The notes below the pieces were generated by a model that made no database searches, was not told the DNA's origin, and saw only the letters and a list, made by a program, of their open reading frames with translations. Shown in pieces: positions 3,532 through 60,132 of a stretch of 64,000 bases of DNA; position 1 is the first letter of the stretch; every line of letters starts with the position of its first letter. This DNA is from Candidatus Spyradenecus sp. Lineage in GTDB: Bacteria > Verrucomicrobiota > Kiritimatiellia > RFP12 > DVOR01. A program made the translations under genes and the position numbers. The stretch is taken from NCBI GenBank assembly GCA_045605345.1, contig JAZUPT010000016.1, positions 4,363 through 68,362 of the forward strand, written 5' to 3'.

Positions 3532-4953
3532 ATGGACTACATCTCCACGCGCGGACTTGCCCCAAAAGTTACCGGCACCCAAGCATTACTCAATGGCATC
3601 GCCCCCGATGGCGGCCTCTATATCCCCGCGCAACCCCTCGCCCCATTACCCGCTGGCGCAGATTTTAAGACCACCATGGAAGCCTTGCTTGAGCGCTTCT
3701 TTGACGATATCCCCGAAGCCGTTCGCAAAGATGCCATCGCTCAAGCGCTCTCCCGTTTCCGTGACGCAGAGATTGTCCCCCTCAAAACCTTTGACAATCT
3801 CTCCTTCCTCGAACTCTTCCACGGTCCGACCTATGCCTTCAAGGATGTCGCCCTTACGCTTTTGCCTCACTTGATGCGCTATGCAGCACAGGTCTCTGGC
3901 ATCAATCGCGTCTGCGTCCTTACTGCCACCAGTGGTGACACTGGTAGCGCCGCAATGCGTGGTTTCGCCGATATCCCTGGCACCTCCGTCCTCGTCTTCT
4001 ACCCGAAAGTCGGCACCTCTGAGATCCAACGTCGCCAGATGGTTTGTTGCCCTGGCGGAAATGTCTCGGCTTGTGCAATTGAGGGCAACTTCGATGACGC
4101 GCAGGCTGCCGTGAAGGCCGCCTTTGCCGACCCCGTACTTGCCGACCGTGCCCGCGCCGCAGGTTGCCTCCTCTCTTCGGCCAATAGCATTAATATCGGT
4201 CGCCTCTTCCCGCAGATTTGCTACTACCTTGACTGCGCACGCCGTTTGGGTCGTCCCTTTGACGTGGTTGTCCCCACTGGTAACTTCGGCAACATCCTCG
4301 CCGCACACTACGCTTGGCAGCTCGGTGCCCCGATTGAACGTCTCACCGTTGCCTCTAATGCCAATCGTGTCGTCTGCGACTTCGTCCGAACAGGTTGCTA
4401 CGATTCCCGCCGTGAATTCCGCATTACCAATTCGCCCTCGATGGATATCCTCGTCTCGTCGAATGTCGAACGCCTCTTGTGGTTGCTCTCCAAGGGCAAT
4501 GATGTGGAAGTGCGCACATGGGAATCCCAACTGAAGGCCGAAGGTCACTTCGCCCTTTCGGGTTATCCTTTGCACGACTTGAAGACCAAGTTCGCCTCGG
4601 GATGGGCCACGCCGGAAGAAACCGAAGCCGCCATCGCCGACATTTGGCGCAACTATCACTACCTCGCCGACCCCCACACGGCAATCGGTTGGAAGGTAAA
4701 TCGCGATCTCCCCATGACTGGACGCCCCACCGTCATTGCCGCCACGGCATCGCCTTGGAAGTTCCCTGTCACGATGCTTCGCGCACTCACAGGCAAGACC
4801 ATTTCTGATGAATTCGCTGCTGCAGGTGGCCTCGCCGCCTTGACAGGCGAAACGCCGGCCTTGGTGGACCTCAAGAATGCGCCCATCTTGCATGACGCAG
4901 TCACCTTCCGCGATACGGTGCCCGAAACCATTTGCCGCACCTTCTCGCTCTAA
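3532..4953 (+). CDS. thrC: threonine synthase
   Basis: MDYISTRG...ALLNGIAPDGGLYIP matches the threonine synthase N-terminus, with a PLP-fold body (FKDVALT, TSGDTGSAA). A strong RBS aaggag lies 7 nt upstream. Confidence 0.9.
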   Translation: MDYISTRGLAPKVTGTQALLNGIAPDGGLYIPAQPLAPLPAGADFKTTMEALLERFFDDIPEAVRKDAIAQALSRFRDAEIVPLKTFDNLSFLELFHGPTYAFKDVALTLLPHLMRYAAQVSGINRVCVLTATSGDTGSAAMRGFADIPGTSVLVFYPKVGTSEIQRRQMVCCPGGNVSACAIEGNFDDAQAAVKAAFADPVLADRARAAGCLLSSANSINIGRLFPQICYYLDCARRLGRPFDVVVPTGNFGNILAAHYAWQLGAPIERLTVASNANRVVCDFVRTGCYDSRREFRITNSPSMDILVSSNVERLLWLLSKGNDVEVRTWESQLKAEGHFALSGYPLHDLKTKFASGWATPEETEAAIADIWRNYHYLADPHTAIGWKVNRDLPMTGRPTVIAATASPWKFPVTMLRALTGKTISDEFAAAGGLAALTGETPALVDLKNAPILHDAVTFRDTVPETICRTFSL

Positions 4954-5072: not shown

Positions 5073-7613
5073 ATGATTCTCCATCTGCGCCACGAGCCCA
5101 ATCACCTCTCTCTCACAGGAGAGGCGTTTGGGGTTATGGTTTCAGATGAAGCCTTGCGCCCTGCCCTCGCCTTTCTCTTCCAAGGATGGCGCGAAGTTGT
5201 CTTGGAAGGGCGTGGCGTTTTGCAGGTTTTGCAACTCATCGCACGCGGCGCCACCTCTCCTACCCTTGTTTATGGCAATGATATCCGCGAAGCGGCCGCA
5301 CTCTTTCCCATCATGCTCCGCACCATCTCTGCGGGATGCGTTGCGCCAATTGTTGAAAATGGCGAGGCACGTTGGCGCGCGACCGTCATTCCCAAAGATG
5401 CCAATATCGCCCTATTCCAAACGCTGACCGACCTCTGGATGCGCACCACCTCATCCACGGTACTGACGCGTGCGCAAGCCATCAAGGGAAAATACTACTC
5501 CCCCGACGACGCCTTTCTGACCGCACTTCGCTCGCCAGATGCCACGATTGCGCTTTCCTCCGAACCGCTTGCGACAGAGTTAGGGCTCTGGGCCGCACCC
5601 CTCTTTGAAGGCGGACGCTCTGCCTTACCCTTGATTCCTCATCGCGATGCGCGCGGATGGTGGATTGACTTTGCCGTCAATGGCTCCCGCCCTGGCAAAT
5701 TCCCCTCTGTCACCAAATTACGCTTGTTAGGGCAAGCGGTTGCCGTCGCACCGATGTTGGGCCTCCCCCAACCTTGGAATGATGCCTTCTTCGCGCGTTT
5801 TTTACGTGAAGCCGTGCCCGTGCTCCGTGCCGCCGCATTTACTGTTGAGCTGCCACAAGCCCTCGAAGTACACGTGCCCGAACTGCATGAGACGGCGACG
5901 GGCATTGAAGATGATGCGGTAAAAATCGTCCGAATGATTCGCTTTGGCGATATTGAGTTGAGCTTGGAAGAGGCGCAAGCAATTGTTGATGCGGGCGAGC
6001 CCCTCGTTTTCATCAATGAGTCATGGCATTGTATTGACCTACAAGCGTTAAAGCGAATCCTGGACAATCTTGGCCCCGAGACGCTCTCTGCACGACGAGC
6101 CCTCCCGCTCCTCCTGGCTGGTGCACTACGCATTGCCCCAGGCGCGCAAGATGTGCAGGATTTCTTGCGTGAAATGACGCAACCTCCCGAAGGCGAATTA
6201 CCCCTCCGCGAGGTCCTTCGCCCCTACCAGGCACAGGGGGTCTGTTGGTTAATGCAAGCCGCCGCACACGGATTGGGCGTCTGTCTCGCCGATGATATGG
6301 GCCTTGGTAAAACGTTGCAGTCAATTGCCTTCCTCTTGTCCCGTCCAGGCCCAGTTCTCATCGTTGCGCCCCTCACGGTCTTACCTGTGTGGGAACGTGA
6401 ATTAGCGCACTGGGCACCCGAGGTGAAGGTCTTGCGTCACGATGGCCCCGAACGACTCCATGGCGAGAGCTTCATCAAGTACGCAAGCGCCCACCAGGTC
6501 ACATTGACAGCCTATGGTTATCTTTGGCGTGACTATTCCACCTTGCGTCGTGTTCATTGGCAGACCTTAATCCTTGACGAAGCGCAGCAAATTAAAAATC
6601 CACACACGCGTCAATCGCAAGCGGCGCGTTCGCTTCCTGCAAATTTCCGCCTTGCGCTCACGGGTACGCCGATTGAAAATAAATTGGAAGACCTCTGGAG
6701 CATCCTTGACTTCTTGAATCCAGAACTCTTCGGCTCCAAGCGTGAATTCACTGAACGCTATCGTGATCCCACGCGCTTACGCCGTGCAGTCTCGCACTTC
6801 CTCTTGCGCCGTCTGAAATCTGACCCAGGTATTCTCGCCGAATTGCCACCGAAGATCCAGCAGGAACACTATGCACCCTTAACCAGTGCTCAATCCGCAG
6901 AATACGATTTAGCTTTGGCAGAATACGCTCGCGACTCGCGCAATGGCGAAGCCTCTGGTCGCACAGGTGCAGTTTTGGCATTGCTCACACGCCTAAAGCA
7001 GATCTGCAATGGTGTAGAAGTCGAGGCAGACCACGGTGCAGAGTTCAGTTCGGGTAAGCTGGATGTCCTCATTCCCTTGTTGGATGAAATTCTTGAGCGT
7101 GGCGAAAGTCTCCTCATCTTTACGCAATTTGCTCGCGTGGGGGCACGACTCCAAACCCTCCTCACCGAACGCTTTGGTGAACGCGTTCCCTTCATTCACG
7201 GCGAACTCTCAGCCAAACAACGGCGCGCAGAGATAGAACACTTCAATGAAACCCCTCGCCCAGGGGTCTTCATCCTCTCCCTCCGCACGGGTGCATTTGG
7301 TCTCACGCTCACAAAGGCCAACCACGTCATCCACTTGGATCGTTGGTGGAATCCTGCCGTTGAGGCGCAAGCGACCGACCGTGTCCACCGCATCGGCCAA
7401 AAGCGCACCGTGGTGGTGCACCACCTTATCTGCCGTGGCACGTTGGAGGACAACATCTCCAGAATGTTGAATGAAAAACGCTTCCTCGCAGAAACCGTGG
7501 TTGCCCCCACCCCTGCCGCCTTGTTGGCGCGCTTGCCACAGGACACCTTGATGGGCATCTTGCGTCGGAATAACGGCCAAGCCCCTACGTTGCCACCCAC
7601 ACCTTCGCGCTAA
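5073..7613 (+). CDS. SNF2/Swi2-family DNA-dependent ATPase/helicase with ~400-aa N-terminal domain of unknown function
   Basis: Motif I [16 protein letters not shown], motif II [37 protein letters not shown], and helicase-C motifs [44 protein letters not shown]. The start codon is uncertain (alternative ATG at 5137). Confidence 0.8.
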   Translation: [846 protein letters not shown]

Positions 7614-12269: not shown

Positions 12270-12625
12270 GGGGGTGTAGAGGTGAATCGCCGTATGGAAG
12301 GTGGGCTTGAAAGTCGCCTGCAGTCCTCACCAGCCGAGGGTTTAACTGTCACAGAGGGCAGAAATAAGCCGCCGTGGTGAGGCGAGGGGACGGCTACTTC
12401 CCGTGCCATCGGCGAGGGATGATTCCCGTGTCTTCGGCGAGAGAGCATTCGGGGGTTCGGGGGGTACCCCCGTCGTTTGGTACCACTCTGGACAGCAGAT
12501 GGCTAAGAGACGGAGAGGGTGACGTGGGGGAGCACGCCGCCCCACACCCCTGCGGCAGGACTAGTCCTGCACGCTACGCATCCTAACGGATGCTTTTACT
12601 GGTGCTCACGAGGATGAAAAGAAAG
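12270..12625. repeat. mosaic intergenic repeat cluster A: two GTGARYCGCCG modules plus a three-hairpin module shared with 50.9 kb
   Basis: 12523-12614 (gtgggggagcacgccgccccacac ccctgcggcaggactagtcctgcacgctacgcatcctaacggatgcttttactggtgctcacgagga) is ~90% identical to 50887-50981. 12346-12375 ctgtcacagagggcagaaataagccgccg matches 51136-51165 ctgtcacaaaggcagaagtgagtcgccg and 43668-43690. There is no ORF longer than 77 aa in the 870-bp gap. Confidence 0.55.
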
Positions 12626-12765
12626 AGCTCTGGGGACGAAGCGCACAGCGACTGGTTAGAAGACGGCATTTATCGTAGCCACGGCCCACTGCGGCCGTAG
12701 TGCACTCTGAATAACGGGTGGTTGAAATGGACGAAGCGGGACTGTGGGTGGCTAAAATCTGGGCA

Positions 12766-12822
12766 TTATCTATCCTTAATCTATCTGATAGACGGGCCGC
12801 AGCCCGTCTGATCTATCCCTTA
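12766..12822. repeat. CTATC-flanked hairpin module (inverted copy of the core of the 38-kb tandem repeat)
   Basis: atctatccttaatctatctgatAGACGGGCcgcaGCCCGTCTgatctatccc is the reverse-complement homologue of ctatccataacctatctgacAGACGGGCcgttGCCCGTCTcatctatctctatccc at 38370-38420. Stems are identical and loops differ. Confidence 0.55.
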
Positions 12823-36822: not shown

Positions 36823-38100
36823 ATGCTCGATACGCTCCAAATCACCGAACTCTCCAACGGCATCAAAGTCGTCTCCCTTGAAAAGCCCAACGCCGAAAGC
36901 GTCCAAGTCGCCATTCATGCGCGCGTGGGCAGCCGCAACGAAACCGAAGCGCAAAACGGTGCCAGCCACTTCATTGAACACATGCTCTTCAAAGGCACCG
37001 CCAAGCGTAACGCAAAGGCAATCTCCCAAGCTATTGAGGGCCAAGGCGGCTCCATCAATGCCTTCACGGATAAAGATAACACCTGCTACTACGCCAAGGT
37101 CCCCTACGACCGCGCCCTCGCCGCCCTTGAAGTCCTCGGCGACCTCTACTACAACTCGACCTTTGATGAAAAAGAACTCAACCGCGAACGGCAAGTCATC
37201 GCCGAAGAGATTCTTATGTACGATGACCAACCCGATAGCGTCGCCATGGATCGACTCGGTAGCCAACTCTGGTCTGGCCACCCCCTCGGGCGTCCCATCC
37301 TCGGCTCCCTTGAAAATGTCCTCAATATCCCCCGCGAAACCTTGTTGAACTACCGCGCATCACAGTACGCCCCCTCCAGGACGGTCTTCTCCTTCGCCGG
37401 CAGAATCTCCCACGAAAAGTGCGTCAGGGCAGTTGAGAAACTCGCGGGACATCTCCGTAATCCTACCACCCTGCGCGCCCCCGAGCCCTTCTCCCGCGCC
37501 TGCCCCCAAGACTCTCTCACCATCACCCGCCGCGCAATCCAACAGACCCAACTCGCCTTCGGATGGCGCGCTCCCGGCCTCTTAGAGTCCTCCCGCCTCC
37601 CCGCGCTTTCTTTTCTCTCCTGCGCACTCGGCGAAACCATGATGTCGCGCCTCTTCCAAAACATCCGCGAACGCAAGGGCCTCTGCTATAGCGTAACCAG
37701 TGGCACCACCCTCTGCCTAGACTGCGGCGCCCTCTTAATTACCGCAGGATGCGATGCGGCAAAGGCGGCCAACTGCACCAAATCAATCCTCGCAGAAATT
37801 CGCAAAATCATTGAAAAGCCCCTTCCTGCCGCTGAACTCCGTCGTACGCGCGACTACCTCTGCGGACGCTTCCGCCTACGCATGGACGGCGCCCCCATCG
37901 GCTGGGCTGCAGGTCGCGTCCTCTTCGGTCTCCCCCCCGACCCCGAAGCCATCCTCGAAGGATTTAGAAATGTCACCGCGGCAGACATCCAAACCCTCGC
38001 GGCCGAAATCCTCACCCCCGAGCGCCTCTCCCTCGCCGTCGTCACCCCCGAAAAAGACCGCCGTACCCCCACCACCTGGTCCAAATTAATGGACTACTAA
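36823..38100 (+). CDS. M16-family (pitrilysin/insulinase-like) zinc peptidase
   Basis: Inverted zinc motif HFIEHMLFKGT (HxxEH) and the downstream Glu region (NAFTDKDNTCYY). Confidence 0.8.
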   Translation: MLDTLQITELSNGIKVVSLEKPNAESVQVAIHARVGSRNETEAQNGASHFIEHMLFKGTAKRNAKAISQAIEGQGGSINAFTDKDNTCYYAKVPYDRALAALEVLGDLYYNSTFDEKELNRERQVIAEEILMYDDQPDSVAMDRLGSQLWSGHPLGRPILGSLENVLNIPRETLLNYRASQYAPSRTVFSFAGRISHEKCVRAVEKLAGHLRNPTTLRAPEPFSRACPQDSLTITRRAIQQTQLAFGWRAPGLLESSRLPALSFLSCALGETMMSRLFQNIRERKGLCYSVTSGTTLCLDCGALLITAGCDAAKAANCTKSILAEIRKIIEKPLPAAELRRTRDYLCGRFRLRMDGAPIGWAAGRVLFGLPPDPEAILEGFRNVTAADIQTLAAEILTPERLSLAVVTPEKDRRTPTTWSKLMDY

Positions 38101-38118
38101 GGCGAAACCCGCTACACA

Positions 38119-38669
38119 GCCGCTTATCTATCCCTCACCTATCTGAGCGGCAGGCCATCCTCCTCAAACAGCGCAACCTCATGCATCAGTGAAGGCGAAG
38201 TGAAGCGCTTTCTCCACTGAAGGGGCCCCATTAGGCGCCCGCGGCGAGGGGCTTATCTATCAATCACCTATCTGAGCGGCAGGCTGTTGCCTGCCTTATC
38301 TATCCTGAAGCAAGAAAGCCGCCATCGATGGATAATAAAAGCATAGAAGATAGATGAGACGGGATAGAGATAGATGAGACGGGCAACGGCCCGTCTGTCA
38401 GATAGGTTATGGATAGGTTATCAGATAGGTTATGGATAGATTATTTAAGGGGACTCGCAGGTGGTCGCCTCATGGTATCTGCGGCGCAGCCGCTTATCTA
38501 TCGATCACCTATCTGAGCGGCAGGCTGTTGCCTGCCTTATCTATCCCGAGGCAAGAAAGTTTCCATCAATGGATAGATAAAAGCATAGAAGATAGATGAG
38601 ACGGGATAGAGATAGATGAGACGGGCAACGGCCCGTCTGTCAGATAGGTTATGGATAGATTATTTAGGG
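38119..38669. repeat. tandem array of ~190-bp CTATC/GATAG-rich units (two near-identical full copies with 239-bp period, plus a partial third) in a convergent intergenic region
   Basis: Copy 38252-38450 and copy 38491-38669 are >95% identical. A partial copy lies at 38119-38175. Each unit has hairpin GGCAGGctgttGCCTGCC, hairpin AGACGGGCaacgGCCCGTCT, and direct GATAGATGAGACGGG x2 and CAGATAGGTTATGGATAG x2-3 motifs. Confidence 0.8.
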
Positions 38670-38821
38670 CTCCTCGCCACGCCACCACTTCACACTCTGA
38701 AGCTATCCTCCTCTCTATCACCGCGGCCTCGTGGCGAGACGGGGATGCGGCGCAGGACTGCATGTAAAGTTTCCGCTATCCAAATGGGCCCACGAAGGCT
38801 GTGGGACACGCGATGCGGGGA

Positions 38822-38852
38822 TAAAAAGAGAGCCGCATCCGAGGATGCGGCT
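38822..38852 (-). terminator. rho-independent terminator of acpP
   Basis: Minus strand reads agccgcatcc-tcg-ggatgcggct followed by ctctttttat, 30 nt after the acpP stop. Confidence 0.6.
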
Positions 38853-38882
38853 TGTTCTCTTCCGTACTTTGAGTACCAACGC

Positions 38883-39125
38883 TTATTCAGCGGTGATGCC
38901 CTTTTCCGTGAGGTACGAAATCACAGCGCCAACGGTGGTCAGCTTTTCTGCGTCTTCGTCCGGGATTTCTGCGCCGAATTCTTCTTCGAAGGCCATGATG
39001 AGTTCGACCTGGTCGAGGGAGTCAGCGTTGAGGTCATCGATGAAGGATGCTTCCGGAACGACCTGAGCGGCGTCCACACCAAGCTGATCGACGATGATGT
39101 CAGTGATTTTCTGTTCGAGGGACAT
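38883..39125 (-). CDS. acpP: acyl carrier protein
   Basis: MSLEQKI...LGVD...[21 protein letters not shown] carries the phosphopantetheine-Ser DSLD motif. Confidence 0.95.
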
Positions 39126-50884: not shown

Positions 50885-51172
50885 ATGTGGGGGCGACGCC
50901 GCCCCCACACGCCCCTGCGGCAGGACTGAGTCCTGCACCCTACGCATCCTGACGGATGCTTTTACTGGTGCTCACGAGGAGGAAGCAGAAGTGAGCCGCC
51001 GAGGAGGTGACCCGTGGGGTGAGGCGGGGATGGCAGGCTACGGCCTGCCAATCAGATAGGTGAGCGGCTAACGCCGCAAAGCCGCGCAAGCGCGGCCCTC
51101 CTGAGGTGATGAGGTACATAGCCAGCTCACACTTGACTGTCACAAAGGCAGAAGTGAGTCGCCGAGGTTATA
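50885..51172. repeat. mosaic intergenic repeat cluster C (three-hairpin module, two GTGAGYCGCCG modules, inverted CTATC-hairpin module)
   Basis: 50887-50981 is homologous to 12523-12614. 50984-51030 and 51136-51170 carry cagaagtgagYcgccgagg. 51034-51066 ggcaggctacggcctgccaatcagataggtgagcgg is the reverse complement of cacctatctgagcggcaggctgttgcctgcc in the 38-kb tandem unit. Confidence 0.55.
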
Positions 51173-54234: not shown

Positions 54235-54309
54235 GGTCGGCCTCGCGGGGATCGAACCCGCGACCCCAACATTAAAAGTGTCGTGCTCTACCAACTGAGC
54301 TAGAGGCCG
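54235..54309 (-). tRNA. tRNA-Lys (anticodon TTT)
   Basis: Minus-strand sequence CGGCCTC-TA-GCTC-AGTTGGTA-GAGC-A-CGACA-CTTTTAA-TGTTG-GGGTC-GCGGG-TTCGATC-CCCGC-GAGGCCG-A-CCA folds as a cloverleaf with a 7-bp acceptor stem, a TTCGATC T-loop, the anticodon loop CTTTTAA and an encoded CCA. A hairpin (agacctgcaa...ttgcaggtct, 54201-54230) lies immediately 3'. Confidence 0.9.
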
Positions 54310-54330: not shown

Positions 54331-54530
54331 AACGACTCCTCAAGACGCAAGCAAATTCTTTACGCAAGCGGCGTGGCCGAGGGCTAATGCCGTGGGGATT
54401 AAACCGCAACACACGCCAGACACTCAAAAAAGAGGTTCAAGTCCCAAGTGTATGGATAAAATTCAATGTACGGGGAGTTCTTCCTTTACTTTTGCATAGC
54501 TTTGGTTAGGAAAAAGGGCGAAATCAGCTT

Positions 54531-54620
54531 AAGTTTGTAACAAACTGGATTTAAGTTTGTAACAAACTGAGATTGAGTTTGTAACAAACTGGATTTGAGT
54601 TTGTAACAAACTGAGATTGA
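54531..54620. repeat. four tandem 22-23-bp direct repeats, each with palindrome GTTTGTAACAAAC, alternating TGGATTT / TGAGATTG tails (2 x 45-bp super-unit)
   Basis: aagtttgtaacaaactggattt / aagtttgtaacaaactgagattg / agtttgtaacaaactggatttg / agtttgtaacaaactgagattg. The repeats lie in an AT-rich segment about 220 bp upstream of tRNA-Lys. Confidence 0.8.
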
Positions 54621-55164: not shown

Positions 55165-58100
55165 TTAGCGTTCAATCTTCGCCTTGAAGAAACGCGGAAC
55201 GACGCTTGACTTCGTCGCGCGCGGTGCGAGTTGTGCCTCACCCTCCGAGCCAAAATCCTGTTCTTGGGCAACTTCAGTCCATGCGGTATCGCTCAAGTTT
55301 TCCTTGGCGTAGAGTTTGATTTGCCCCTTGATAGAGCCTGTCTTTTCCTTACCATTCACCGTAAGGGTCGCAGTAAGGGTAACATTCCCCTCTGCATCAA
55401 TGGTGAAGGCTGCAATATCCAGTTCCGTGGCCGCTGCCATATCAGCGATCGGTGCTTCATCCAAGAGATAGGCGAGTTCGTAGTCGGCTGCAGCGGTGAC
55501 TTCTGCGAGTGCCGCAGCTTTCACCTTACCATCGGTGATGGCTTCATTCAACCACGTCGCAATTTCCGCCGGCAAGACATTATCCACTGCGACATCGCCA
55601 TCTGCCTTCTTGAGGACGATAGACGTTGCTTCCGTATTCGGTTCAGGAATCCACGTCTTATCATCGCCATAGACGGCAAGACCGATGACAAAGCAAGGAT
55701 CGTTGTTTTTGACGTATTCCTTACGATCATACGCCAAGACAAGCGACTTACCACCCAAGAGCACCGTGCCAGGCGGCAAGGTGAAGACATCTTCAGAATC
55801 CTCAGGGAGTGTCGAGACATCCATCATGCCCTCCACGGTCCAACCGCTCAAGTCGATGGAATCAACATTGGGGTTCGTGAGCTTAATGCCGCCTTCAACC
55901 TTTTCCATCAAGATGGGCGCGAAGGTTTCAGGATGCGCAGCAGGAATGCCCGCATTCTTATCAGAAGCATAACCCGTTTCCCACTCGGAATTATTAATGG
56001 AGTGAGTTTCATAGAGGTGTGTACGACGCGGCACAACGTACTTTTCCCACAAATCTTCAAAAGCCTCATCCCAACCAAGGATGTGATCCCAAACGTAAAT
56101 CACGGTATCCTTGTACTCGGTGCCCCACTTGGCGCGGTCAAGTTCTGCATCGGCAGCGACCACTTCCTTGAAAAGCGTGACGTAATCCCAGAAAGGCGTC
56201 TCCTCTTGCGCGGTGTCAGGCGCCTTGAGGTGTTCATCCATCAAGGTGCGCAAACGGCGCAAGTACATCTGACGAATCTCAGGATTCTGCCAAAGGGCTT
56301 CCACAGCGTAGTTGCCGCTACCAACGGTAGCCCCACTCTTCGCATGCGCACGCACCTTCCAACCGCTGTAGAAGGGATGCGACTTGAATTCGTCGGCTGT
56401 CGGACGAAGACCGATGCGACCTGTTGCGCGATCATCACCAAAATACCATGCGCCAAAGGAGAGGTTATGGTCATAGGCGAGTGGCATCCAGACGTCATTG
56501 CCGTTCTTATCCCAATAGAGGCTGATATTCGCCCAGATGTCGTCCGCTTCCTGCGTAATACGTGCCATCGCGAGATAGTTAATCCACGCAGGGATATCAA
56601 AGGAATCATAGACTGCATTCTTCAATGCTTCGCGTTTAGCAACGATGTCGGCAGAGACTTCAGTGCCCGCCTTTTCAGCAGCGAGTTCAGCTTCGGCCAC
56701 GGCCTGAGAGGTGGAGAAGGTTTGTGCCCATGCAACCATGGGTGCATAAGCCGTTGGACTGGTTTCATCGCCATCATCCGGGGTCTTCTTTTCCACAGAT
56801 CCTGCGGTAGTGCCAACATTTGCGGAAATCGTGCCCACATTCTTATAACCATAACCCATGGGGTCAAGGCCGTAGTAGTCCTCAATGAGTTCGTCCGTAA
56901 AACGATTTGAGTGGAAGGCGAGCTGATAGAATTCGCCATTCAACTGCAACCGCACCGGATAGTGGAAGGGCACCTTATTGCCCGCATTACGCCACATGTG
57001 GAACGAGAGGCTCTGACGGATAAAAGTCGGGTCTGCATATTCCGCCGTAAAAGAGGTCTTGCGGATTTCCTTGAGTTTCGTCCCCTTCTTGCCTTCGAGC
57101 ATATTCTTGCAGGTGAGGGGTTGGCACTTACTGAAACGCAAACCGTGCGACTTCTTGGGGAAGTGTGCAGAGGTGTTGCCGCGCAGGTCAATGCGCACGT
57201 TGTCATAATACGTATCAGTCTGAGCATCGTAGATACCGCAACGTGCGCCCAAAGGATACGCCTTTGAAATGTCGGCATAGTCCTTATCCATCAAGTCAAG
57301 ATTCGTGCTCCCCTCCACAAAGAGATGGAAGGTCTGCAACTTCTCATGGAGCGACGTCTGGTCTGCGGTTGGTTCCACAATCGTACCATACCAATTCGGG
57401 CAGTCATCGGGATTATTGCGCGAAGGCGAAATCCACTGGCGCCCTGCCCCATCGGTAATCCGCGCACCGAACTGAATGAGCAAGCCATTCGCAGGAAGAT
57501 CTTTCGCAGGGATCACGCCCACATAAGCAGGGAACAACTTCTCCACTTCAATGGTTTCTCCCGCTTCATCCTCTTCTTCCACGGTGCGTTGGAAGGCCTC
57601 TTCGGTGAGAGCCATCTCCACATACTTCGTTTCGCCGAAGTTGCAACGATACATGAGTTCCACCTTTGTAATCGCATTTTCTGCGTCATCAGCAATCGGG
57701 TGTACATCTAAAACAACCGTGTAATCTTCGCCAGGCGTTGCCATCGGCTCGGGCAAATAGTAACCAAAGTCTTCAAAGACTTCCTTGTTCGACGGACCGA
57801 TATTCGGGCCATACGGAATTGCAGTGGAGGTGTTGTTCTCAGTGCCAGGGGTCATATCTGGCATGATGACGCGCGTTTCACCTGCAATTTCGCCAGCGAG
57901 TTCTGCCGTAATCAAGACCGACATGCGGCTTGCGTCTTCATCTGCCGTCAACGTCCAAGCCAAAGTGCCAGCCGTAGCACCATCCAATTCAATCGGCGCG
58001 TCCAATTCAATCGCTTTACCTTCCCACGCCAAAGCCAACAAACCTGCGGTCTCAGGTGCAGAGAAGGTCAAAGTCGCGCCCTCTGCATATTCAGGCAAGG

Positions 58101-60132
58101 TCACCGTCATTTCACCCGTCACCGTAGAGGGCAATGTCTCCACGGATTCATAGACATCCGCAGAATCATCCGTGCCGGCTTCGGTGACCTTCGTCGTCGC
58201 GAGCGTTGAAGCATTGTACGCCTTCGCCACTTCGCGTGCAGGGAGCACACCAGAGAAGATGTTGATTTCCGACATCTCACCACGGAAACCGCGCCAATAT
58301 TTATCGTGTGCACCCCCAAAGCGACGCGTTGTTATTGCCGGAATGTAACCTGTAATAACCTGCGAAGCAACGGCCACACCATTGATGTAGAGCGTTCCTG
58401 TTTGAGTCTTCGCATCAATCGAGAAGGTTACATGTGTCCACTCATTCACTGGCAGCACCTCCTGACCTGCGAAAGCCACATTTACCTTTGTCTCACCACC
58501 GCGCTGAACATAAATCTTTTGTTTTTGACCATCGTCATTTGTACCAACCAAGAGCAGATAACCATTCTCGTCCTGCGAACCATTACGCGAATCCATTAAG
58601 ACAACCGCTTCATTGCCCGTCGCATCAAAAGAGGTGGGCTTCACCCAGAAGGCAAGCGTTTCACCAACAGAGACAAGGGTGTCCGTGGCTTGAAGGGAGT
58701 TCTCAACATAGGCTCCAATTGCCTGATAGTCCTCATCCCCCGCGCCCACAGTTGCAAAAGTGTAGGTATCTGTTTCACCGTTGTAAGTCAGGTACTTCTT
58801 CGTTGTCTCATTCACGCGAGACACCAAACCGCCATACTGCGATGTAATATTACGCGAGGCAGAATTTTCATCAGCCAACCAAGAGACTTCAGTTGCACTC
58901 AACCCACGATTAAAGACCTTAATGTCCGCAATCTGGCCATAGAACGTGTGCCACGAGGTGGAGTCATAGGCGTGACCAAAGCAATAAGGGATGGTATTCT
59001 GCAATGCGCAGTCAAACGGCATCTCCGTTGTGATTTCGGCCTTACCATCGATGTAAAGCGTTAAGGCATCACCCGCCTTCTGCCCTGCCACCAACACCAG
59101 ATGGTGCCACTTGTTATCGGCGTAATTGGCATCCGTATTGGAGAGGAATTGCGCAGAATTGCTCGCATTACGCGGTTGAATGGTGATTTGGTTCTCATCA
59201 TTCAAGAACAGGTTTATGCCCATCTTATTGCCCGTCTTTGATGGACGGCATTCGAAGAGCGGCATCCCACGTCCTGTGGTGTTATCGGTAATATCTTCAG
59301 TCGTAGGTTCGGAACGGAACCAGAGCGAAACAGCGTACATACCTTCAGGATAAGCCTGAGGCGTCATCTGCACACCCTTATTGCCAGAGGTCATCCCAGA
59401 GAAGTCATACACATTCGCCTGGAGTATGCCATCTGCATCCTTTGAGCCCGTGTAATCTTCCAACACCGCGACGGCGGCGTCTACTGTAGGCGTGAGCGTC
59501 ACCTGACCTGCGACATCACTTGGCAACTGCGTTGTGCTCACGGTCAAACGGCCTACGCCAGTTTGCTTTTCGCCATCACCCAATTGATAGGTGTATTCAG
59601 AAGCTTCATTCACCACAGGAATGCGGTTATACGCATCCCCAGGACCAAAACTTTGGTCGTCAGGCAAATCCACCGGCACAATCAAGGTCTGCAGAAGCGT
59701 CTTTTGGTCAGCACGATAGAGGGCCACATTGGGGAACTTCTTAGGGTTGACCTTGGAGGGGAAGACCATCACATCCTTGTCGTACACCGCGACCTTTTCG
59801 CCATCCCAATAATTCGGATAGGCTTCGCTCGTGTACACAAGTGTACGTTCACCAGGACCTAATTCGCGGTCACACAAGATGCGACGATTCTTTTTCTTGT
59901 CTTCCTTACCGCGATTCCAACGAATCAAGGCAAAATCCTTCAAATTCACCGTTTCGGTGGTGCTGGTATTCGTCAATTCAATCCAACCCGCCTCCTTCCC
60001 ATTCGGGTCAAGCGCATCCGGGCGAGGGCAAATTTCTGTAATACGCAATGTCGCAAAGAGGCTCGCTGCCATCGTTGCACCCAATACACTGCTCAACATC
60101 TTCAACGTCTTCATCTTTGAGCATCCTTCCAT
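55165..60132 (-). CDS. giant (1655 aa) secreted multidomain CotH-family (atypical kinase fold) protein: signal peptide - lamin-tail domain - two LamG/ConA-like lectin domains - CotH domain - second lamin-tail domain - C-terminal tail
   Basis: Signal peptide MKTLKMLSSVLGATMAASLFA. LTD ITEICPRPDALDPNGKEAGWIELTNTS...LKDFAL. LamG blocks WHHLVLVAGQ...LYIDGK...GQIADIKVFNRGLSATEV and EWTHVTFSID...LYINGV...GEMSEINIFSGVLPAREV. CotH block YYDNVRIDLRGNTSAHFPKKSHGLRF...YDHNLSFG. Second LTD IDLSGWTVEG...FTLPPGTVLLGGKSLVLA. Confidence 0.75.
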   Translation of the reverse strand: MEGCSKMKTLKMLSSVLGATMAASLFATLRITEICPRPDALDPNGKEAGWIELTNTSTTETVNLKDFALIRWNRGKEDKKKNRRILCDRELGPGERTLVYTSEAYPNYWDGEKVAVYDKDVMVFPSKVNPKKFPNVALYRADQKTLLQTLIVPVDLPDDQSFGPGDAYNRIPVVNEASEYTYQLGDGEKQTGVGRLTVSTTQLPSDVAGQVTLTPTVDAAVAVLEDYTGSKDADGILQANVYDFSGMTSGNKGVQMTPQAYPEGMYAVSLWFRSEPTTEDITDNTTGRGMPLFECRPSKTGNKMGINLFLNDENQITIQPRNASNSAQFLSNTDANYADNKWHHLVLVAGQKAGDALTLYIDGKAEITTEMPFDCALQNTIPYCFGHAYDSTSWHTFYGQIADIKVFNRGLSATEVSWLADENSASRNITSQYGGLVSRVNETTKKYLTYNGETDTYTFATVGAGDEDYQAIGAYVENSLQATDTLVSVGETLAFWVKPTSFDATGNEAVVLMDSRNGSQDENGYLLLVGTNDDGQKQKIYVQRGGETKVNVAFAGQEVLPVNEWTHVTFSIDAKTQTGTLYINGVAVASQVITGYIPAITTRRFGGAHDKYWRGFRGEMSEINIFSGVLPAREVAKAYNASTLATTKVTEAGTDDSADVYESVETLPSTVTGEMTVTLPEYAEGATLTFSAPETAGLLALAWEGKAIELDAPIELDGATAGTLAWTLTADEDASRMSVLITAELAGEIAGETRVIMPDMTPGTENNTSTAIPYGPNIGPSNKEVFEDFGYYLPEPMATPGEDYTVVLDVHPIADDAENAITKVELMYRCNFGETKYVEMALTEEAFQRTVEEEDEAGETIEVEKLFPAYVGVIPAKDLPANGLLIQFGARITDGAGRQWISPSRNNPDDCPNWYGTIVEPTADQTSLHEKLQTFHLFVEGSTNLDLMDKDYADISKAYPLGARCGIYDAQTDTYYDNVRIDLRGNTSAHFPKKSHGLRFSKCQPLTCKNMLEGKKGTKLKEIRKTSFTAEYADPTFIRQSLSFHMWRNAGNKVPFHYPVRLQLNGEFYQLAFHSNRFTDELIEDYYGLDPMGYGYKNVGTISANVGTTAGSVEKKTPDDGDETSPTAYAPMVAWAQTFSTSQAVAEAELAAEKAGTEVSADIVAKREALKNAVYDSFDIPAWINYLAMARITQEADDIWANISLYWDKNGNDVWMPLAYDHNLSFGAWYFGDDRATGRIGLRPTADEFKSHPFYSGWKVRAHAKSGATVGSGNYAVEALWQNPEIRQMYLRRLRTLMDEHLKAPDTAQEETPFWDYVTLFKEVVAADAELDRAKWGTEYKDTVIYVWDHILGWDEAFEDLWEKYVVPRRTHLYETHSINNSEWETGYASDKNAGIPAAHPETFAPILMEKVEGGIKLTNPNVDSIDLSGWTVEGMMDVSTLPEDSEDVFTLPPGTVLLGGKSLVLAYDRKEYVKNNDPCFVIGLAVYGDDKTWIPEPNTEATSIVLKKADGDVAVDNVLPAEIATWLNEAITDGKVKAAALAEVTAAADYELAYLLDEAPIADMAAATELDIAAFTIDAEGNVTLTATLTVNGKEKTGSIKGQIKLYAKENLSDTAWTEVAQEQDFGSEGEAQLAPRATKSSVVPRFFKAKIER

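Follow-up and report, generated by a model that had tools for sequence, protein, structure and literature searches.

Tandem REP-like hairpin modules between an M16 peptidase gene and acpP, and a RAYT-type gene flanked by the same modules in sister Kiritimatiellae genomes

Anatomy of the repeats in the M16/acpP gap

In a 64-kb stretch of DNA from Candidatus Spyradenecus sp. (the window, 64,000 nucleotides), an M16 peptidase gene and acpP converge on a 782-nt gap that contains two tandem units of paired hairpin modules. We describe here the structure of these units, their distribution among related genomes, and their association with a gene for a tyrosine transposase of the kind linked to repetitive extragenic palindromes (REPs), or RAYT. 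The two direct repeats, at 38251–38445 (unit A) and 38492–38668 (unit B), are approximately 95% identical. Their comparison gives 87 nt at 99% identity (D1) and 84 nt at 92% identity (D2), with a start-to-start spacing of 241–242 nt, and the repeated period takes in a conserved linker between the units. Units A and B differ by substitutions and one indel, and a 23-nt duplication of the tail (38420–38444) is present in unit A only. The motif GATAG or its complement CTATC occurs 24 times in the gap, 10 times in unit A and 9 times in unit B, a density of 30.7 per kb as compared with 1.4 per kb window-wide. Across the window, CAGATAGGTTATGGATAG with up to three mismatches has 7 matches where 0.02 are expected, and GATAGATGAGACGGG with up to two mismatches has 5 where 0.06 are expected.

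Each unit is an inverted repeat of one module of approximately 50–57 nt, with arms of 48–50 nt that are 80% complementary. Read in one orientation, the module runs from the head GATAGAT(G/A)A through a hairpin (7-bp stem, 4-nt loop) and a 2-nt spacer to the tail TCAGATAGG-N3-4-(G)GATAG(AT). Two types of module alternate: the Y-type stem is GGCAGGC/GCCTGCC and the Z-type stem is GACGGGC/GCCCGTC. The two stems differ at two positions, both of which are compensated. Modules are oriented head-to-head inside a unit, across a linker of about 60 nt, and the units are arranged tail-to-tail across about 45 nt. The head and one half of the stem are duplicated within both units. Folded as single-stranded DNA, unit B has a predicted energy of -37.5 kcal/mol (z = -5.8), with its tails paired and two inner stem-loops; for unit A, z = -3.9. 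The features of the region, and the other modules of the window, are the following:

36823–38100, + strand: M16 peptidase gene (context); arrays are consistently housed in its 3' flank, which in sister genomes also houses a RAYT gene
38117–38156, - strand: relic half-module directly 3' of the M16 stop codon, in which the tail TCAGATAGGTGAGGGATAGATAAGCGG and the initial half of a Y-type stem survive (nhmmer E 6e-9, restricted to model positions 25–60)
38251–38308, - strand: unit A, Y-type module, read on the - strand as GATAGATAA, GGCAGGC-AACA-GCCTGCC, GC, TCAGATAGGTGATTGATAGATAAGC (nhmmer E 5e-18)
38309–38365, no strand: unit A, long internal head-to-head linker, with the duplicated head-plus-half-stem GATAGATGAGACGGG at 38349–38363
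38366–38421, + strand: unit A, Z-type module, GATAGATGA, GACGGGC-AACG-GCCCGTC, TG, TCAGATAGGTTATGGATAGG (nhmmer E 4e-19)
38420–38444, + strand: 23-nt tandem duplication of the Z-module tail, TCAGATAGGTTATGGATAGATTA (nhmmer E 1e-4)
38445–38490, no strand: short tail-to-tail linker between the units, with a small hairpin, GCGGC-GCA-GCCGC (38481–38493), at its end
38491–38548, - strand: unit B, Y-type module (nhmmer E 6e-18)
38549–38608, no strand: unit B, long internal linker; its duplicated head lies at 38591–38605
38609–38664, + strand: unit B, Z-type module (nhmmer E 9e-20)
38823–38852, - strand: intrinsic terminator of acpP, AGCCGCATCC-TCGG-GGATGCGGCT followed by CTCTTTTT; not part of the element
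38883–39125, - strand: acpP (context)
12764–12820, - strand: solo complete Z-type module, stem GACGGGC and loop TGCG, in an 870-nt divergent intergenic region (nhmmer E 3e-17)
51029–51066, + strand: partial Y-type module, GGCAGGC-TACG-GCCTGCC followed by TCAGATAGGTGA, intergenic, with the head and the distal tail lost (nhmmer E 1e-9)

Over 39 nt (38117–38155), the relic half-module is 87–95% identical to the full copies. By nhmmer profile the window contains five complete and two partial modules, and all seven lie between open reading frames (ORFs). Modules are also extragenic in five loci from other genomes (L032, L062, L071, L072 and L078), and the tail-to-tail linker is conserved in the arrays of three of these (L032, L062 and L071). 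Much of this outline had been noticed in an initial annotation made from the letters of the window: near-identical tandem units with two hairpins each, dense GATAG/CTATC motifs, a partial third copy near 38119, related copies at about 12766 and 51034, and a convergent gap between two 3' ends rather than a promoter region. Our measurements agree on each of these points; both hairpins, GGCAGGC-TGTT-GCCTGCC and GACGGGC-AACG-GCCCGTC, are present in each unit, and a promoter scan of the gap found no site. The period is slightly longer than the 239 bp given there. The internal inverted-repeat structure, the conserved linker within the period and the tail duplication of unit A had escaped that annotation.

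The hairpin is conserved in shape while its sequence changes. In an ungapped, hairpin-only alignment of 26 distinct hairpins, five of the seven stem pairs are changed on both sides. The covariation score is 0.555, compared with 0.137 ± 0.027 in shuffles, of which none of 500 reaches the observed value, and with 0.18 at most in controls in which the partner was slid. These hairpins were preselected for at least 6 of 7 pairs, hence the fraction of paired positions is a circular figure. A second test used no pairing selection and took every occurrence of TCAGATAG, a motif 2 nt from the stem, in the Kiritimatiellae loci. The motif occurs at 62 sites, and in 47 of them a 7+4+7 hairpin with 6 or more of its 7 pairs comes before it at a constant spacing; at random positions the rate is 1.8%. 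The sites that lack the hairpin are tail duplications and relics. The hairpin is kept by compensatory change, as is characteristic of REPs and of the bacterial interspersed mosaic elements (BIMEs) that they form.

A RAYT-type gene and copy-number polymorphism at the same site

In the metagenome-assembled genome (MAG) Kiritimatiellae bacterium RGIG7486 (GCA_017558005.1; locus L062), arrays of Y/Z units flank an ORF of 320 residues (P0001, L062 4141–5104). The L062 segment past the arrays gives a 94% alignment to window positions 38187–35980, which places this gene and its arrays directly 3' of the same M16 peptidase gene. P0001 contains the motifs MPDHIHL (HUH) and IDYTAANP (Y---NP); M83 P84 D85 H86 x H88 and Y147...N151 P152 are invariant in 19 sequences. 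Its fold is closest to 4ER8 and is that of TnpA-REP. The best NCBIfam match is REP_Tyr_transpos, the REP-associated tyrosine transposase (E 4e-13), and two homologues carry the JGI name ‘REP element-mobilizing transposase RayT’. The same order is seen in L098, assembled independently from a different animal: PEP-CTERM gene, array, RAYT, array, M16, ABC, MarC. At the sensitivity of a word-indexed search, the P0001 subfamily has 21 members, many of them on contigs of 1–2 kb or at contig ends, as expected for genes embedded in repeats.

More divergent members of the subfamily are flanked by modules of their own. Upstream of P0004 (61% identity; L094) lie three modules in tandem, and downstream lies one in inverted orientation, each reading GAT, GACAGCC-GACT-GGCTGTC, GT, TCAGATAGGCGAGGATAGG, and the modules that flank P0003 (L090) resemble them. 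On both sides of P0019 (50% identity; L093) we find CGATAG, GCAGCAC-GGGT-GTGCTGC and then CTCAGATGAGA, with the stem GCAGGGC or GTGCCGC in some copies instead. P0014 (L092) is flanked by inverted AGATAGGCA iterons. For P0003, P0004 and P0019, at 50–61% identity, the module architecture is the same, the complementary stems are different, and the flanking copies are in inverted orientation. A Y1 transposase gene is flanked by the same REPs in L062 and L098, at the orthologous locus, and by its own stem variants in L090, L093 and L094.

Between the last module and the start codon of the RAYT gene, L062 contains a CT-rich low-complexity stretch of degenerate CATCTATC and CCATC repeats (4020–4125). 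A similar stretch adjoins a solo module in L078 (7900–8000). It may represent decayed module heads and tails, or a promoter region.

The initial annotation had proposed a comparison of copy number across strains, and at the M16 3' site we observe 0, 1 or 2 units, or arrays with a RAYT gene. A strain that is 97.3% identical to the window, with the same acpP/M16 synteny (L001), has no full unit and a different filler of approximately 330 nt. L087 has one unit and no RAYT, the window has two units, and in L062 and L098 the RAYT gene is enclosed by 2.5 + 1.5 units. All four genomes compared (the window, L001, L062 and L087) retain the half-module, in decayed form, beside the M16 stop codon. The difference between L062 and L087 is a block bounded by the direct repeat GAGATAGGATAGATAAGGCAGGGG.

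The other side of the gap is variable as well. An exact search with the AcpP protein returned ten loci (L001–L010), from ruminant-gut metagenomes and one NCBI MAG. Among these loci with identical AcpP there are at least five different neighbours downstream of acpP (from locus coordinate ~10244): the M16 peptidase, a PATR autotransporter region, MutS, a UDG/His-biosynthesis block, and a Laminin_G/PATR giant protein. In every case, homology to the window stops just past the acpP terminator, at about 38814. The arrays thus mark a rearrangement hot spot. An exact-protein look-up of the window's M16 peptidase, made for further alleles of the locus, returned no record.

A third recurrent motif, CATGCAGTCCTTTACATGCTTCGCAGATGCG, forms an imperfect hairpin and has a degenerate copy inside the gap, at about 38755–38790. 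It is also found downstream of acpP in other strains and beside arrays (L005 ~10343; L006 ~4450 and ~10346; L062 ~5510–5550).

We scanned one genome per species, 185,579 species and 596 Gb in total, with the pattern ATCTATCNNTNANCTATCTGA, which has 17 specified bases. The scan returned 71 loci. Repeated matches occur only in the RGIG7486 MAG (11, spread over five loci); all other genomes yielded one match apiece, and the number of these single hits is what chance predicts. A more specific pattern, run against JGI metagenomes, returned eight contigs, all from one project. Related genomes are 95–97% identical to the window at the nucleotide level over shared genes. The element is confined to a narrow lineage of ruminant-gut Kiritimatiellae.

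Interpretation and alternatives

Based on the anatomy of the units, the hairpin covariation, the lineage restriction, the copy-number polymorphism, the association with a RAYT gene in several lineages and the fold of its product, we consider it likely that two REP doublets of an atypical REP-RAYT system form a BIME-2-like tandem cluster in this region. The modules would be non-autonomous DNA elements; a REP-associated tyrosine (Y1 HUH) transposase most likely makes them, multiplies them and removes them. Sister genomes encode such an enzyme at the M16 3' locus with arrays on both sides, which would correspond to the arrangement termed a ‘REPtron’. By analogy with TnpA-REP of E. coli, the enzyme would bind the 7-bp/4-nt-loop hairpin together with the adjacent TCAGATAG or GATAGAT on single-stranded DNA, for example at a replication fork. 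It may then cleave and rejoin at nearby sites, and the number of tandem units would change. The arrays could later serve as substrates for homologous recombination, which would produce the synteny breaks seen at this site. On this interpretation, the region is selfish DNA of a known kind, in a new variety, rather than a regulatory array for acpP. The REP reading would explain the acpP/M16 junction as a rearrangement hot spot in these MAGs, and also the contig breaks at these loci and the great length of the intergenic gap. It would extend the REP-RAYT system to Kiritimatiellota, in the Planctomycetes-Verrucomicrobia-Chlamydiae (PVC) group, in the ruminant gut. REPs, BIMEs and domesticated RAYTs are well studied in Proteobacteria, and their mode of spread and benefit to the host are still debated.

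Several observations weigh against this assignment. The foot of the hairpin has no GTAG or GTGG; the hairpin is instead bordered by conserved GATAGAT(G/A)A and, on its other side, NN-TCAGATAG. The stems are perfect, and not mismatched as in E. coli REPs. P0001 scores 23.9 bits against Pfam Y1_Tnp, only just above the gathering score of 23, and its match to REP_Tyr_transpos, at 49.4 bits, is below the curated cut-off of 80. The window itself encodes no RAYT detectable by tblastn with four RAYT homologues (nothing below E = 1). Copy number is modest so far: the exact pattern matches 11 times in the RGIG7486 MAG and the 64-kb window has 7 modules, as compared with more than 100 per genome for classical REPs, and MAGs under-assemble repeats. 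The difference between the window and L001 is a segment replacement and not a clean insertion, and no transposition event is directly documented. Finally, distant homologues of P0001 (L096, L099 and L102, including Prevotella loci) lie in tight gene contexts with no REP arrays visible.

Comparison with E. coli shows both likeness and difference. Within a locus, tandem copies of BIME-2 are nearly the same in sequence, and strains differ in how many they have (PMC3333891). The modules described here share with BIME-2 and its REPtron (y and z2 REPs, TnpA-REP, subclass 2.2) the extragenic, near-identical tandem copies of varying number. They also share the cognate Y1 HUH gene flanked by the same elements, a fold closest to 4ER8, and the DH[IL]H, WE and Y---NP motifs. 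In E. coli, the REP is a 30–40-nt imperfect palindrome with an essential mismatch; here, the stem is a perfect 7–8 bp with a 4-nt loop. Instead of a GTAG foot there is the conserved TCAGATAG 2 nt from the stem, together with two further GATAG heptamers. The linkers are longer (45–65 nt), the protein has 310–370 residues with a C-terminal DprA-like domain as compared with 165 in E. coli, and the host phylum is Kiritimatiellota, not Proteobacteria.

Pseudomonas REPINs (Bertels and Rainey, 2011) likewise consist of two inverted REPs able to form a single long hairpin; they too are non-autonomous, and the RAYT is apparently single-copy and flanked by them. Unlike in REPINs, the spacer here is longer and variable (24–65 nt), the arms are two distinct sequence types, the units are in tandem with a conserved linker, and the copy number seen so far is low. 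With IS200/IS605 elements the system would share, by analogy, a Y1 HUH enzyme that recognises hairpins and an adjacent guide or cleavage motif on single-stranded DNA; neither shows a target-site duplication. It differs in that there is no tnpB, the tyrosine motif is of RAYT type (Y---NP) and not Y---Q, and the modules are multiplied independently of the gene, in arrays and in both orientations on both sides of the gene.

Among TnpAY1 proteins, the REP-associated subclasses are small single-domain proteins of 150–215 residues; subclasses 2.2 and 2.5 have the DH[IL]H / WE / Y---NP signatures and 151–165 residues (PMC6006769, Quentin et al., 2018). The same study reports atypical REPs that lack GT[AG]G, found only by manual inspection, in subclass 2.6 (Bacteroidetes) and in class 3, where the 5' foot is CnGA (PMC6006769). 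Read on the opposite strand, the motif here is ATCTGA-NN-stem, which holds CTGA and on sequence grounds would fit CnGA. Class 3 proteins have Y----Q, whereas Y---NP is found here. Subclass 2.6 proteins, compared by motif and length only, have about 179 residues and no DprA-like domain.

The alternative that survives best concerns the present state of the array. The units could be dead remnants of a former REPtron, whose RAYT was lost or moved when acpP came to lie next to M16, with the two units produced by unequal crossing-over or replication slippage. The lack of a RAYT in the window is consistent with this, as are the differences from L001 and L062, which are segment replacements bounded by repeats, the direct repeat around the L062/L087 block, and the micro-duplications of 20–23 nt inside the units, which look like slippage. 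However, the units are still about 95% identical with all four hairpins intact, the module family shows compensatory evolution of its stems, and intact copies exist at other loci. We regard a fossil array as unlikely, though it merits consideration; it bears only on the last step of the history and does not dispute the kind of element.

A function for the host is less probable still. The array might provide sites for a host protein (a nucleoid-associated protein, gyrase or an IHF-like protein), or its hairpins might act as bidirectional terminators or stabilisers of mRNA 3' ends for the convergent genes. In its favour, the GATAG heptamers are densely iterated, a lenient terminator scan of the + strand accepts the Y hairpin with the TTATCTAT that follows it, and E. 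coli BIMEs bind IHF and affect mRNA stability (PMC3333891). Against this, acpP has its own strong terminator, a 9–10-bp GC-rich hairpin (38852–38831) followed by a T-run, 30–60 nt past the stop codon and on the acpP side of the units. L001 and L002 retain this terminator, as do strains that lack the units, where homology ends at 38814. Since the terminator is conserved where the units are absent, and the units lie beyond it, we rejected the units as a 3'-end structure of acpP. The T-tracts after the module hairpins are weak: the modules do not qualify as intrinsic terminators, and the only match is a lenient one with the tail TTATCTATCC. A search of the whole window against Rfam at the gathering threshold matched only tRNA elsewhere, and the region at E<=1 matched only noise such as miRNA models. 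In addition, the modules flank a transposase gene in sister genomes, and any host use would be secondary. The initial annotation had offered a REP-like cluster protecting the acpP transcript. The REP-like part agrees with the alternating hairpin modules, which are extragenic, lineage-specific, variable in copy number and adjacent to a RAYT in sister genomes; the protective role finds no support, given the terminator. Its further suggestions of an Xer/dif site, a partition site or a dedicated array for a nucleoid protein find no support, and an essential binding array is made less likely by the absence of both units from L001, approximately 97% identical, a kind of variation that the annotation itself had named as refuting. 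Host proteins may still bind secondarily, as they do in E. coli BIMEs.

We also considered a classical miniature inverted-repeat transposable element (MITE), that is, a unit of ~190 bp with ~50-bp terminal inverted repeats, mobilised by the DDE transposase of a full-length insertion sequence elsewhere. The unit size (180–200 bp) and the terminal inverted repeats, 48–50 nt at 80% complementarity, would suit it. We rejected this reading because no target-site duplication borders the units, whose flanks read GGGGC/TTTAAG and GCCGC/TTTAGG. Solo modules and tandem arrays in one orientation (L094) are also found, the internal hairpin covaries, which a terminal repeat bound as duplex does not need, the only gene repeatedly flanked encodes a Y1 HUH enzyme, and no insertion sequence with these ends is present in any fetched locus. 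A MITE is accordingly very improbable. Least probable of all is a small RNA gene or an assembly artefact: the predicted structure is stable and near-identical tandem repeats are a classic product of misassembly, but there is no Rfam match above noise and no promoter-like site in the gap, substitutions and an indel set the units apart, and at least four independent assemblies (L032, L062, L098 and L087) show this architecture.

The DprA-like domain and further repeat families

The RAYT-like protein is a fusion of two domains: its N-terminal part has the TnpA-REP fold, and its C-terminal part is a DprA-like Rossmann fold in which the motif GGxIxGGF is conserved. The C-terminal domain matches no Pfam or NCBIfam model. 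At 310–370 residues, the fusion exceeds the 150–215 of the small single-domain proteins and is yet flanked by REPs. By contrast, the published classification gives no associated REPs for the subclasses with large C-terminal domains (2.1 and 2.3), and it makes no mention of DprA (PMC6006769). DprA/Smf, a RecA-loading protein that binds single-stranded DNA, and ShosA are the known systems to which the domain compares; here, it is fused to a RAYT and lacks the SAM and winged-helix domains.

With a profile of the family, 457 clusters (50% identity) match over the full length of both domains at E<=1e-30; at E<=1e-3 the number rises to 17,402. The nearest relatives of the fusion family are thousands of Prevotella proteins annotated as ‘hypothetical’. 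Association with REPs is demonstrated only for the Kiritimatiellae subfamily P0001–P0020. Within the searchable RAYT/HUH literature we found no description of a RAYT-DprA fusion or of REPs in Kiritimatiellae.

We therefore raise, as a tentative proposal somewhat short of even likelihood, that these proteins constitute a previously undescribed REP-RAYT subclass, in which the transposase is fused to a DprA-like domain that would bind single-stranded DNA and possibly load RecA. The cognate REP would be a composite site, a short perfect hairpin with three direct GATAG heptamers around it. These heptamer iterons might be read by the extra domain or by further protomers, which would possibly couple REP processing to recombination. 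If so, the Kiritimatiellae would be the lineage in which the DNA substrates are still visible, and the function of a large unannotated family would become testable. A REP-flanked RAYT with a large C-terminal domain offers that family a concrete substrate for biochemistry.

Distant homologues carry in-frame tandem repeats of 9 or 15 nt inside the gene (L099 1901–2033; L102 1950–2024; L096 3366–3412). In the alignment, these fall in the region of the large insert seen for P0021 between the HUH and Tyr motifs. They recall the in-frame REP insertions reported for TnpAY1 subclass 2.4.

The window contains a second, unrelated composite repeat in intergenic positions, at 12526–12618 and 50891–50984 (37 + 56 nt, 81–95% identical), which holds the small hairpins GGGGGCGACGCCGCCCCCACA, CAGGACTnAGTCCTG and GCATCCTnACGGATGC. 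In five other loci (L078, L083, L085, L088 and L089) this repeat adjoins GATAG modules, and the lineage thus appears to carry several co-localising REP-like families. In addition, four tandem 22-nt copies of AAACTGGATTTAAGTTTGTAACA, 80–100% identical, are located at 54521–54608, between a tRNA gene (54237–54309, - strand) and the end of an ORF of 1655 residues (55165–60132, - strand).

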